A stretch of DNA of 31,139 bases from a virus (lineage: Duplodnaviria; Heunggongvirae; Uroviricota; Caudoviricetes): IMG/VR virus record IMGVR_UViG_2531839193_000007, one strand, 5' to 3'. Position numbers: made by a program. Position 1 is the stretch's first letter; every line of letters begins with the position of its first letter. Shown one piece after another: positions 1 to 5,596 of the stretch.

Positions 1-3000
1 CGAAAAACGAGCAGTGGTACTGAACCAGATTGTTGATCGCCGGACGGCATCGTTACGCGGTGTGGGGATGCTGACAAATATTAACCATGCAGCGATGAAT
101 ACACTTCTCGGCGAGCGGGTGATGGATCGCATGGTCATGAACGGCGGGCGCTGGGTGAATTTTAACTGGGAGAGCTGGCGTCCGAATGTTAGCCATTCGA
201 GGGTTGTTAAGTAGTTTCAGGAGGATTTATGGCGAAACCTTTTACTCCCGAACAGCGGGAAGAACTGAAGACGCGAATTGTGGAACTCGTGCATCAGGAC
301 GGTCGGGTCACGATTCGGCAGTTGTCAGATGAAACAGGTATCAGTCGTGCGTCTGTCGGTCGCTTATGCATAGAACTGGTCGCAAGTGGTGATGTATATA
401 ATTCTGGCTACGGGGTATTTCCCTCTGAACAGGCTCATAAAGACTGGCAAAACGCCCGCAAAAAGCTATCGAGGGTAAAGGTGAAGAAACCGGTTGTGGT
501 TGATCCTGACCTTATCTGGTCATTACCAGACGGAGAAATACGCCGCTACGACAGGCGCCTGAATATAATCTGTCGCGAGTGCCGGAAGAGCGAAGCTATG
601 AGGTGTACTGGCAATAGCGGACACTACCATTTGTCTTTTTTAAGCAGCCATCTGATGATATTTTTCCCTGAAGGCTGCCGGGGAGATATTCCCCAGACGA
701 GAGTGACGACGCTGACGATTGTAGAAAATCTCAATGTATTCCCGTATTACTGAGATGGCTTCATCCCGGTTATTAAAACGATAGTGGCTCAGGCTCTCAT
801 TTTTCAGCGTTCCCCAGAAGCTTTCCATCGGAGCGTTGTCGTAACAGTTACCTTTACGCGACATTGATGTTTTCAGACCAAACTGCTCCTGTATGACCCG
901 GTAATCGTATGCGCAGTACTGTGAACCTCGATCAGAGTGGTGGATTAGCCCGGCAGGTGGGCGCTGGCTCCTGAGCGCCATAAACAGGGCTTTACCTGTC
1001 AGCTCTTTTGTCATGCGCTCTCCCATGGCGTAGCCGACAATTTCGCACGTATAAACATCTTTGATGCCAGCGAGGTACAACCATCCCTCCTGTGTGGCAA
1101 CATACGTCAGGTCCGCCACCCAGACCTGATTTGGTGCTGTAGGAGCGAACGTCTGGTTCAGCAGATTTGGCGCAACTGGCAGATTGTGGTTCGAGTTCGT
1201 AGTCGCTCTGAACTTGCGTTTCTGCTTACAGCGTAGCCTTAGCTCCTTACGAAGACGTGCCAGTCGGTCACGACCAACGATGATGCCATTCTCTGCCAGC
1301 TCCGTCTGGAGCCGCCGGGTTCCATATGTTTCGCGAGTGCGGATATGTGCCACCTTAATCTCCAGTTTTAGCCGCTCATCACTTTGTTTTCTGTCTGAGG
1401 GTTCATGCTGTACCCAGTTGTAATAACCGCTCCTGGATACACCAAATACCTGACACATCGCTTCAATGGGAAATTGTTGTCGCCATTGTTCGATTAACGC
1501 GTATTTTTTCGGCGACTCCTGTGCAAAATACGCTGTTGACTTTTTTTAATATATCTCGCTCAAGGCGAGCTTCATTTAACGCCTTACGCAGTTGCAGAAT
1601 TTCAGATTCCAGTTCAGCCACCGTGCGGGAACCAGGAGTACCGAGCCCTTTTCTGGCGGCGGTAACCCATTGTCCTAAAGTGCCTTCAGGAAGAGATAAT
1701 CGGGAAGCGCCTTCACTGATCGAAAGTTGATTTTCAAGAACCGTTCTGACAGCTTCGGCTTTGAACTCTTTAGAGTAACGTTGGGTTTTTCTGCTCATTA
1801 TTAGCTCCTTCTGATGCCATTCTATTTCAGGAAGGAGTGTCCGTTAAACTCAGGCTACCTCAGTACGGGTTGACGAAAAAGAGCGTCAGGTCCGCTGTAA
1901 AATCTGCGGTGCGGTTGTGGAGCCGTTTGACTGGATGCTCTCTGTGGCAAAAAGAGAAACCAGACTGGCAGATGATGTAAGGCTATTGCGCCAGGAGGAA
2001 CAGGAAAGGCGGAGAAATATAGAAAAGCTGATACAGATTGAGCGTAACGCGAAAGCGCGGATACGCAGGGCGACAAAATCCAGAACTGAATAATTAAATT
2101 TAGCACTGTTAAAAATTTAATCCTTAACCGGAGGGATTTCTGCACCCTCAAATCATCAGGAGACCACCCGAAAGGGCGGGGAGCAGTCACACATCTGTTT
2201 CCGATAGCCCCGTTCTAATGCTACACTCTTTGATATTTTTATGACCCCAATAAACATATTTATGACAGTTGCTGATTTCAAACGGCCCAAATTGGAGCTC
2301 CCAAACGGGGCAAACAAACTACTACTGCACTCTTGCTGTGCTCCATGTTCCGGTGAGGTGATGGAGGCGCTTCAGGCCTCGGGAATCGACTACACCATCT
2401 TTTTCTACAACCCGAACATTCATCCTCAGAAAGAGTATTTAATTCGTAAGGATGAGAATATTCGCTTTGCTGAACAACACGGCGTGCCGTTTATTGATGC
2501 TGATTACGACACAGACAACTGGTTTGAACGAGCCAAAGGAATGGAATGGGAGCCCGAACGAGGGATCCGTTGCACCATGTGTTTTGACATGCGTTTTGAG
2601 CGGACAGCGCTGTACGCCGCTGAAAATGGTTTCAGTGTGATCAGCAGTTCACTGGGCATTTCACGCTGGAAAAATATGCAGCAGGTTAACGACTGTGGGC
2701 GGCGAGCCGTCGCGCATTATCCGGGCATGGTGTACTGGGATTATAACTGGCGCAAGCAGGGCGGCTCGTCCCGTATGATTGAAATCAGCAAGCGCGAAAA
2801 ATTCTATCAGCAGGAATATTGTGGCTGTGTGTATTCTCTGCGCGATACCAATCTACACCGCAAATCTCAGGGACGCCCTCTTATCAAAATTGGTCAACTC
2901 CACTACGGTAAAGAAGAGAAGGAGTGATTTTATGGGGCACCTTTCTGATTGATTTCATATTGGCGAGGTAAGTAGAATGACTGCGGGTGCTTGAGGCTAT

Positions 3001-5596
3001 CTGCTTCAGGCATGAACACCAAAAGGCAGATAGAGAAAAGCCCCAGTTAACATTACGCGTCCGGCAAGACGCTTAACATTAATCTGAGGCCAATTTCATG
3101 CTTTGCACATGTAGGTTAGCCTCTTACATGCCGAAAGGCAAGGAGAAGCAGGCTATGAAGCAGCAAAAGGCGATGTTAATCGCCCTGATCGTCATCTGTT
3201 TAACCGTCATAGTGACGGCACTGGTAACGAGGAAAGACCTCTGTGAGGTACGAATCCGAACCGGCCAGACGGAGGTCGCTGTCTTCGTAGACTACGAATC
3301 CAGGAAGTAAGAGTGACCGGGCGGGGAGCTGATCCCATCCCCGCCCACCTCTGATGTGTCAGGCATCCTCAACGCACCCGCACTTAACCCGCCCATCGCT
3401 GTGATCTCTCAGCGTTTCGGCGGGTTTTTTGTTGTTTATTTCCGGTGAATTTGATTCGCGCACCTTCGCAGATAGAATCGACTCACTTAAGTAGCGCGCA
3501 GGGAGAAGAGGGATGGACCCCGAACAGGGGAGAGCTATTTATCTGGAAGGATTCTGAAGATGAAAATCGAAGAATTGCGTGAAATTTTTAGTGAAAATGG
3601 CCTCTATGCTGTGCGCGTTGAGAATGGAGCGATTGTCAGCCATTGCCGCATTAGATGTTTGCAATCTCAACAAAGGAAGAGCGGTGCTGTGTTATTTTAT
3701 TTTTGTAATGGACTTCTGACGGACGGTTTTATTTTGCGTGAGGACGAATTTGTCACATCATTACGGGTTTTGAAAGAGATTGGTTTTAAGGCTGGTTTTC
3801 TGCTTTTGCTGAAGAATAAACTCATCTACAATCTTGAGCAGGATTGAACTCCTGCTGTGTAACACCGTGCCACCGGAGAAAGCCGATGGCACATATACAA
3901 CTGGTCAAACAAACCTCTTCCGGATTACTTCTCCCGGCGACGCCGGAGAGTTGCGATTTTCTGCATCAAATCAAAATAGGTGAGTGGATACACGCAGACT
4001 TTAAGCGTGTGTGTAACTACGCATTCCACAAGCGTTTTTTCAAACTCCTGCAACTGGGTTTCGATTACTGGACTCCGGTCGGTGGGGCGATCACGCCTCG
4101 CGAACGAAAACTGGTGTCCGGTTTCGTTGATTACCTGTGTGAATCAGTAGGCCGGGAACATACGCCAGCTCTGAGCGAAGCCGCAGAGCAATATCTGAAT
4201 ACAGTTGCGACACGCAGAACCAGTGATACGGCATTGCTAAAGTCGTTTGAGGCTTTCCGCGAGTGGGTAGCCATTCAGGCCGGATTTTACACCGAGCATT
4301 TTTATCCGGACGGTAGCCGTGGGTGTCGGGCGAAATCTATCGCGTTTGCGAATATGGACGAAACCGAGTTTCAGCAGGTTTATAAATCTGTTCTGAATGT
4401 GCTGTGGAACTGGATTCTGTTCCGTAAATTTTCCTCTCCGGAACAAGTCGAAAATGTGGCCGCGCAGCTGCTGGAGTTTGCGTAATGGTGGATTTACGTA
4501 AAGCGGCGCGGGGGCAGATGTGCACCGTCAGAATTCCTGGCTACTGCAATCACGATCCGGAAACGTCTGTGCTGGCGCATTACCGACTGGCGGGAACGTG
4601 CGGAACAGCGATAAAGCCACACGATATGCAGGCAGCGATTGCCTGTAGCTCGTGCCACGATTTAATCGACGGGCGGGTAAAAACCAGCGATTACACCAAA
4701 GAAGAATTACGCCTGATGCATGCAGAAGGTGTTTTTCGCACACAAGAAATCTGGAGAAAGGAGGGATATTTATGATTTACCCAACGAATACAGGAAAAAG
4801 CGGAGAACACCTTCGTCTCACCACGCTGGAAAGTGTCTGGATTCAGGGAAAACTACGTATGTGGGGGCGCTGGTCGTATATTGGTGGCGGTAAGACGGGG
4901 AATATGTTTAACCTGATGTTGACCTCTAAAAAGCTGACAAAAACGGCAATTAACGAGGCGCTCCGGAGGATGAAAAAGCAGGTCTGAACAAGTCTGAACT
5001 TGAGGCTTTTTTGCGGGATATGATTAACGGTAAGCAAAAGAGCTGGCTGGCGCATTGTACTGATGCAGAGGCGTTATGTATTGATCGGGTCATAAGTGAG
5101 GTGCTGGCAGAGCATCCAGGATTGATTAGCGTCCTTCGGCAACGGTATGAGGGGCGGGGGATGACCAAACGCAAAATGGCTGAACTGCTGAATGATGCAC
5201 ACCCGAAATGGAGTTTAAGAACCTGTGAAAGACGCATTGAGCATTGGCTAAAGGTGGCAGAATTTATTTTGTACAAACCAATGGTTATGGCTTTTGGTAT
5301 AGAGAAAAAAGTTATTGCTTTTTGACGTAAAAACTGCTTCAATTCTTGTACGCTTCGCAAAGCTGTACCGCGAGGCGAATAGCAGACATGGACATTTGAA
5401 AGAGCCCGCTTTATGCGGGTTTTTTTATACCTGAAAAACGGCACAGGACGTTAAACGTGCTGGTGGTCAGATGAGTTTGCAGATGTGATGACATATGGTT
5501 ATTATTCTGCCTCCGGCCCTTTAGCTCAGTTGGTCAGAGCGAGCGACTCATAATCGCCAGGTCGCTGGTTCAAGTCCAGCAAGGGTGAAGTAGTCA

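Follow-up and report, generated by a model that had tools for sequence, protein, structure and literature searches.

The window analysed here is a stretch of 31,139 nucleotides (nt) of viral DNA assigned to the Caudoviricetes (IMG/VR record IMGVR_UViG_2531839193_000007), and all positions given below refer to it. Between positions 2949 and 3430, the plus strand carries, in order, a putative promoter, a long structured leader, the overlapping open reading frames (ORFs) of mok and of the small toxin gene hok, each preceded by a Shine-Dalgarno (SD) sequence, a stem-loop and an intrinsic terminator, and the minus strand opposite the leader carries a predicted Sok antisense RNA and its promoter (Table 1). 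Read together, these features very probably constitute a complete hok/mok/sok type I toxin-antitoxin module of the hokD/hokW subgroup, situated in the nin region of what looks like a defective lambdoid prophage riddled with insertion sequences (IS), and the module would operate in the manner of its homologues in plasmid R1 and in Sp5. The elements of the locus are all present, conserved and covarying, and homologous to those of characterised loci. An earlier note on this DNA had described a complete hok-type locus with promoter, leader and 3′ structures, and the features and coordinates that it listed proved accurate when set against Pfam, Rfam, a promoter scan and RNA folds.

The toxin is the most readily recognized component. 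The protein encoded by the hok ORF, MKQQKAMLIALIVICLTVIVTALVTRKDLCEVRIRTGQTEVAVFVDYESRK, covers the full 42-position Pfam profile HOK_GEF (PF01848) with 81.1 bits against a cutoff of 22 (E=4e-23) and is 98% identical to HokW, the sole difference being R50 in the window and E50 in HokW. At the nucleotide level, two RefSeq ‘E. coli’ chromosomes (FDAARGOS_943 and FDAARGOS_944) carry the region at 100% identity, with the coding sequence (CDS) annotated as WP_014532198.1, ‘type I toxin-antitoxin system toxin HokD’, and the antisense RNA left unannotated. Shigella flexneri SFBU1023 has the region at 99.6% identity, and many Shiga toxin (Stx) and other lambdoid phages have it at 90-92% identity across ~420 nt. 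The GenBank record of phage 933W annotates the homologous stretch as hokW, mokW and the antisense RNA sokW, and pairwise alignment maps these annotations to 3155-3310, 3098-3310 and, on the minus strand, 3106-3036 of the window, respectively.

Upstream of the toxin gene, the leader (2985-3160, plus strand) matches Rfam family RF01794 over the entire model (positions 1-157 of 157) with 117 bits against a gathering threshold of 59 (E=2.7e-26); an R1-type locus and that of 933W, used as controls, score 88.9 and 113.5 bits. The R1-type reference is locus L132, whose Hok is 100% identical to R1 Hok and which replaced L004, a locus broken by IS150 inside its leader. The minimum-energy fold of the full transcript (2985-3430), at -189.6 kcal/mol (z = -8.4 against shuffles), joins the 5′ end to the 3′ end, the tac and fbi elements contributing 12 base pairs (bp) with a duplex energy of -21.5 kcal/mol. 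The position of tac suggests that transcription of the hok mRNA starts at 2985-2986.

The fold of the hok mRNA is supported by covariation. Related loci, 127 in number, were fetched from viral and genome collections, and 69 diverse ones, from Escherichia, Shigella, Kluyvera, Photorhabdus, Erwinia, Pantoea and Citrobacter, were aligned; the pairs of the window's minimum-energy structure were then counted on this alignment, the control being the same structure with its partners slid by 1-3 columns. The given structure places a standard pair in 87.9% of cells, against 35-42% in the slid control, with 250 cells altered on both sides (60-124 in the control) and a covariation score of 0.148 (0.047-0.064 in the control). 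The tac/fbi helix (helix 1) is paired in 96.4% of cases and shows a compensatory change from U-A to C-G, GGGUGC/GCACCC becoming GGGCGC/GCGCCC in 12 sequences, mostly from Photorhabdus, and the 5′ leader hairpin (helix 3) is paired in 93.8%, with four pairs altered on both sides, for instance from A-U to G-C or U-A. The base of the 3′ stem-loop (helix 16) is only 27% paired in the count, a value that is an alignment-register artefact of loop indels and not counter-evidence. A chance ORF and chance hairpins were also considered; the E-values and the covariation rule them out.

Table 1. Coordinates of the features at the hok/mok/sok locus, followed by the IS-related genes of the window.
Feature	Position	Strand	Remarks
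Putative hok promoter	-35 TTGATT 2949-2954; 18-nt spacer; -10 TAGAAT 2973-2978	+	From the promoter scan
tac (GGGUGCUUGAGG)	2985-2996	+	Start of the Rfam match; aligns with +1 of the R1-type hok mRNA; pairs with fbi
5′ leader hairpin (CUAUCUGC...GCAGAUAG)	2997-3033	+	Seen in the folds
Predicted Sok RNA, ~71 nt	3036-3106	-	5′ single-stranded tail 3106-3091; hairpin 3090-3040; U-rich 3′ end 3039-3036
ucb, mok anti-SD (AGCCCCAG)	3039-3046	+	Partner of the mok SD in the closed form and of tac in the open form; from the folds
mok SD (GAGG)	3086-3089	+	8 nt 5′ of the mok ATG; paired in the closed fold
mok ORF	3098-3310	+	70 codons; in frame with hok, same stop; colinear with 933W mokW
Sok promoter	-35 TTGCCT 3141-3136; 17 nt; -10 TAACCT 3118-3113	-	Both hexamers identical to those of 933W/Sp5 sokW; conserved family-wide
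dcb (GCCUC)	3119-3123	+	Open-form partner of the mok SD; overlaps the Sok promoter
hok SD (GGAG)	3142-3145	+	
hok ORF	3155-3310	+	51 aa; TAA stop 3308-3310; Pfam PF01848
3′ stem-loop	3319-3346	+	GC-rich; -20.9 kcal/mol; upstream of fbi
fbi (CCUCAA-C-GCACCC)	3367-3379	+	Complement of tac; occurs in K-12 hokD also
Intrinsic terminator	Hairpin 3386-3426; T6 3425-3430	+	-24.1 kcal/mol; z = -5.9
IS3-family transposase genes (rve domains), three	640-1458; 5594-6433; 7582-8487	-	Interrupt the prophage
orfA-like ORF	1463-1798	-	Likewise interrupts the prophage

The elements on which the alternative folding of the mRNA would depend are equally well preserved. Following the published definitions of tac, ucb and dcb, in which ucb is the AGCCCC anti-SD and dcb sits in the Sok promoter (PMC9841398), the ucb columns are almost invariant among the 69 loci, and dcb is part of an almost invariant TAGCCTCTTAC block; the tac/ucb duplex is worth -12.9 kcal/mol and the mok SD/dcb duplex -9.3 kcal/mol. 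When the SD/dcb pairs are enforced, the open form (tac/ucb together with mok SD/dcb) lies 2.7 kcal/mol above the window minimum, and the corresponding gap is 2.1 kcal/mol in 933W, 1.9 in the R1-type locus and 0 in one relative, folding energies from which a switch between a closed and an open mRNA is predicted at the window locus. The comparison of the leader with characterised hok/sok loci that the earlier note had proposed as a check came out in its favour: the R1-type and 933W loci align with it and the conserved hok mRNA elements are formed.

The in-frame, mok-like extension upstream of hok is indeed there, and its start is well conserved. The mok ATG is kept in 68 of the 69 loci, as is GAGG, and GAGGC at the mok SD is invariant in the alignment. 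The frame itself is variable: 52 loci, the window included, have mok in frame with hok, 8 have it in the +1 frame, where, as in R1, it extends deep into hok, and 9 have a 19-codon ORF that stops on the hok AUGA. Conservation of the ATG and the SD without conservation of the frame fits the published view that the act of translating mok counts and its product does not (PMC9841398), and is at least consistent with translation being the more important of the two. From the overlap of the two ORFs, translational coupling of mok and hok is predicted at the window locus. As a separate observation on the toxin frame, the codon of Hok Tyr47 stands in a TACG context (3293-3296) that is invariant across the same loci; a preprint describes A-to-I editing by TadA in the hokC, hokD and hokE mRNAs that recodes the corresponding Tyr to Cys.

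On the opposite strand, the minus-strand sequence of 3106-3030 folds into a 5′ tail, a long hairpin (GCCUCAG...CUGGGGC) and then UUUUCUCU, with an energy of -30.2 kcal/mol against -19.9 kcal/mol for the sense strand, an asymmetry that arises because G-U pairs in the antisense strand are C-A mismatches in the sense strand. Among 23 distinct variants of the Sok hairpin, drawn from its long and short classes, the antisense strand is the more stable in every case (23/23, by 8.1 kcal/mol on average), which is evidence, at the level of sequence, of a hairpin preserved for the sake of an antisense transcript. The earlier note had expected Sok on the minus strand around 3040-3120, and strand and location were right; the true span would be 3106 to ~3036, positions 3113-3141 being occupied by the promoter. 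The candidate promoter TTGCCT-17-TAACCT lies exactly where the note had placed it. In the study of Sp5, primer YO-421 mutates the sokW -10, changing plus-strand AGGTTAG to CGGCTCG by our own reading of the primer (PMC8621323), and the altered AGGTTAG is the reverse complement of the window -10.

A matter of nomenclature touches this antisense gene. RF01794 is named ‘sok antitoxin (CssrC)’ and matches the hok sense strand, from the 5′ end of tac to the hok AUG, which is the strand opposite to the Sok RNA. Its matches lie on the plus strand in the window (2985-3160), in the R1-type locus L132 (327-503) and in the 933W locus L001 (1521-1695), and sokW of 933W is annotated on the opposite strand. 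Pipelines that use RF01794 would consequently put ‘sok’ on the wrong strand and make it ~2.5 times too long.

Downstream of hok, both the 3′ stem-loop and the terminator noticed earlier were recovered by folding. Relatives preserve the stem-loop, their sequence changes being paired, as in GGCGAGGG/CCCTCGCC versus GGCGGGAG/CTCCCGCC, and by analogy with R1 it presumably protects the 3′ end of the processed mRNA (PMC9841398). The family consensus of the terminator is CCCGC-TTCG-GCGGG-T6, and the window carries a 23-nt insertion in the loop (3393-3415; CCATCGCTGTGATCTCTCAGCGT) that forms an inner CGCUG/CAGCG stem and is common to loci L005, L009 and L010. A consensus terminator scan of 2800-3600 found none, because the loop of this hairpin is long and structured.

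The hok promoter is one of three elements in which the window lineage departs from its relatives, the others being the terminator loop and the Sok 5′ tail. The site TTGATT-18-TAGAAT is one of two found in 800 nt, where shuffles lead one to expect 0.8. The claim that the locus has its own sigma70-like promoter stands as far as the presence of this site at 2949-2978 goes, but TTGATT is not the -35 of the family. The -10 and its spacing to GGGTGC are kept family-wide, and the distance from the -10 to the conserved GGGTGCTT is fixed in nearly all relatives. Other queH-linked relatives have TTGGCG-17-TAGAAT as hok promoter; in the window lineage, 10 nt (GACGTGAGTT or ACGGTAGTTA in relatives) have been deleted between 2969 and 2970, owing to which 7 nt now separate the ancestral TTGGCG from the -10. 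The place of the displaced hexamer may have been taken by the TTGATT farther upstream, with its 18-nt spacer. A second promoter-like site, TTGATT-16-TAGAAT, lies on the plus strand at 3451-3478, just past the hok terminator and upstream of ORF 3560-3847.

What such a module would do is best described from its experimentally studied relative, the hokW-sokW locus of Sp5 (VT2-Sakai), reported in 2021 (PMC8621323). There, HokW is toxic and is neutralised by sokW expressed from its own promoter; mutation of the sokW -10 ends the protection, sokW supplied in trans restores it, the protection requires RNase III and Hfq, and Northern blots show both RNAs (PMC8621323). By analogy, the weak hok promoter of the window would give rise to an mRNA of ~445 nt, running from ~2985 to the terminator at 3430. 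The full-length molecule would be shut, tac being paired with fbi and the mok SD being held by ucb, and in this closed state it would be neither translated nor bound by Sok. Slow trimming of the 3′ end as far as the stem-loop would strip fbi, and the shortened RNA would refold into the open form, with tac paired to ucb and the mok SD to dcb, exposing the mok start and the Sok target. Translation of mok from 3098 would then permit translation of hok into a 51-aa inner-membrane toxin. Sok, a presumably unstable RNA of ~71 nt transcribed from TTGCCT-17-TAACCT, would use its 5′ tail to pair with the mok start region, and this pairing would trigger cleavage by RNase III. Whenever the supply of Sok stopped, through loss of the element, shut-off of transcription or prophage induction, the stable processed mRNA would be translated and Hok would damage the membrane. 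The instability of Sok, the stability and 3′ processing of the hok mRNA and the cleavage of the duplex by RNase III are taken from homologues (PMC8621323, PMC9841398), and it is likewise from them that we infer transcription, processing, toxicity and antitoxin function of the window locus in its host.

The carrier bears on the role that can be assigned to the locus. The module is flanked by queH (2241-2927) and by a rem-like ORF (3560-3847) of 95 aa that has no Pfam match and whose upstream DNA and first codons resemble the K-12 Qin region preceding rem. Farther downstream come the DUF1367 and YbcO genes and, according to the RefSeq annotation of the identical region, a DUF1133 gene, followed by a tRNA(CAT), lysis genes, terminase and head genes; chromosomal genes, including those of the LysR family, the aconitase family and a pectinesterase, begin at ~18.8 kb. 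With its IS interruptions and these chromosomal genes, the carrier looks like a defective lambdoid prophage in an IS-rich, Shigella-like genome. The single tRNA, with a CAT anticodon, lies at 5515-5588 on the plus strand and is called Met by ARAGORN, whereas its RefSeq counterpart is a cluster of four tRNAs, the first of them annotated as tRNA-Ile; in the window, an IS element seems to have taken the place of the other members. Two Rfam matches in the chromosomal part are unrelated to hok, sRNA-Xcc1 at 26615-26703 (minus strand, 68 bits) and naRNA4 at 23044-23114 (plus strand, 63 bits); the naRNA4 alignment looks like a REP-type repeat.

Lying in the nin region with the lysis genes downstream of it, the locus invites the view that it serves as a helper of lysis at phage induction, or as an abortive-infection defence, and not in addiction or post-segregational killing: once Sok was lost, upon SOS induction or infection, Hok would permeabilise the membrane ahead of holin and endolysin. 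Such a role is possible but doubtful. It draws on the behaviour of Sp5 after mitomycin C treatment, when sokW is lost and HokW builds up in the inner membrane (PMC8621323). The window prophage, however, seems unable to make particles, given its IS insertions and the lack of tail genes in the part of the window that separates the head genes from the chromosomal ones, and a function in lysis would for that reason be vestigial here.

Other points weigh against a complete and working hok/mok/sok module as such. The 10-nt deletion displaces the family -35 and leaves the substitute TTGATT-18 alone, and hok transcription may therefore be reduced. The Sok promoter is weak in comparison with the consensus (7/12 matches) and falls under the cutoff of the scan, hence its absence from the scan results; its consensus match is by itself no evidence, and what counts instead is positional homology and the identity of its hexamers to those of sokW. 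The unconstrained fold of the truncated mRNA (2985-3352) lacks the open form and shows a local 5′ hairpin, resembling the metastable structure that has been described. The insertion in the terminator loop may affect termination or 3′ processing. A preprint that summarises earlier work states that the chromosomal hokA, hokB and hokC loci failed at post-segregational killing.

The promoter deletion and the decay of the prophage leave room for an intact but silent relic that neither kills nor stabilises anything, its hok gene being hardly transcribed or never switched on. The terminator insertion, the three IS3-family transposases, the chromosomal genes that follow the prophage and the failure of the hokA, hokB and hokC loci all fit a relic of this kind. 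It is nonetheless unlikely, since the remaining elements are all intact and correspond to those of Sp5, whose locus is functional, nothing interrupts the ORF, a substitute -35 is available, the hexamers of the Sok promoter are unchanged and the balance between the open and closed forms equals that of functional loci. A gene of the leaderless hokD (relF) type known from K-12 Qin, that is, a toxin ORF without antisense control of its own, is suggested by the RefSeq name hokD and by a coding sequence and 3′ untranslated region (UTR) ~90% identical to those of K-12 hokD, but is refuted by alignment with the MG1655 relB-relE-hokD region and can be dismissed with near certainty, as the K-12 homology starts only at the hok SD (~3142), upstream of which K-12 has relE and the window a full 170-nt leader and a Sok gene.

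Within the complete hok/mok/sok module, which we continue to prefer, the Sok tail stands out. The Sok RNA of the window and SokW differ at 7 positions, all of them in the 16-nt 5′ tail (3091-3105), and at 0 of the remaining 55 nt; the hypergeometric chance of all seven falling in the tail is ~9e-6. In a set of 58 close relatives, the tail reaches a nucleotide diversity of 0.34, compared with 0.035 for the Sok hairpin and 0.069 for the third codon positions of hok, and it is in this tail, or mok start region (3091-3106), that variation within the hokD/W group is concentrated. Three loci with three distinct tails, that of the window among them, occur in S. flexneri SFBU1023. About 45 distinct tails were counted in 92 sequences, a sample with few multi-locus genomes and hence no power with regard to the avoidance of shared tails by co-resident loci. 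A tentative and rather improbable interpretation is that the Sok 5′ tail and the complementary mok start region form a fast-evolving specificity cassette, set in an almost invariant background of hairpin, promoter and hok. If this were true, hok/sok modules sharing a genome would be insulated from one another's antitoxins, and the SokW of Stx phages would not efficiently neutralise the window allele. The tail may equally be the least constrained stretch of the transcript, since the loop of the 5′ leader hairpin is almost as variable (0.28). The variable tail offers a modest lead on the avoidance of cross-talk among multiple prophage toxin-antitoxin copies.

For the rest, the significance of the locus is mainly one of correct annotation and little beyond. 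Where RefSeq lists ‘hokD’ in a queH-linked prophage region, the gene belongs to a full hok/mok/sok module with an unannotated antitoxin RNA, and the window locus documents the intact arrangement that is absent from K-12 hokD, where relBE fills the place of the leader. Nor is the find unusual: loci of this sort are frequent in prophages, and the GenBank record of 933W annotates one. The system and its location are both of known kind, and the window locus is nothing new in kind.

The closest known systems are the hokW/mokW/sokW loci of the Stx2 phages 933W and Sp5 of E. coli O157:H7, with ~91-92% nucleotide identity from the -10 to fbi. They share with the window an identical Sok hairpin, identical Sok promoter hexamers, an in-frame mok and a lambdoid prophage as carrier, and differ in 7/16 positions of the Sok tail and in residue 50 of Hok. 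In 933W, moreover, the upstream neighbour is L0139, where the window has queH and the 10-nt promoter deletion; the sequence past fbi, including the terminator, is different, and the locus is near the end of the linear record, whereas that of the window is in the nin region.

The hok/mok/sok (parB) locus of plasmid R1 has the same order of elements throughout, from tac, the 5′ hairpin, ucb, the Sok hairpin, the mok SD and ATG and the dcb within the Sok promoter to the hok SD and ATG, the 3′ stem-loop, fbi and the terminator. It shares the blocks GCTTGAGGCT, AGCCCC, TAGCCTCTTAC and CAAGGAGAAG (CAAGGAGAAG-N-ATG), the match to RF01794 and a similar gap between the open and closed forms. It differs in its plasmid carrier, as opposed to a prophage, in a Sok hairpin of ~34 nt against 51 nt in the window, and in a mok in the +1 frame at 58 nt from hok, against an in-frame mok at 57 nt; the Hok proteins are only ~44% identical according to the published comparison (PMC8621323).

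The hokC/mokC (gef) locus and other chromosomal hok loci have an in-frame mok extension and the same leader architecture, and loci at 70-75% identity, whether from the E. coli reference genome or from several further Escherichia species, align from end to end; they are unlike the window in belonging to the short Sok hairpin class and in having different flanks. Several K-12 hok copies are inactivated by IS elements. K-12 Qin hokD (relF) belongs to the same Hok subgroup, with 90% protein identity, and has a 3′ UTR with stem-loop, fbi and terminator stem as well as a homologous, rem-like downstream gene, but its promoter, tac, ucb, Sok gene and mok start are replaced by relBE. The contrast with a relBE-linked hokD that the earlier note had drawn is borne out by these differences and by a search of the K-12 relB-relE-hokD region with RF01794, which gave no match. 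Two IMG/VR contigs, L009 and L010, are 99% identical to the window from ~3106 on, and in them unrelated sequence replaces the part from tac to the Sok hairpin; they represent a further form of hok with a truncated leader, distinct from the relBE type seen in K-12.

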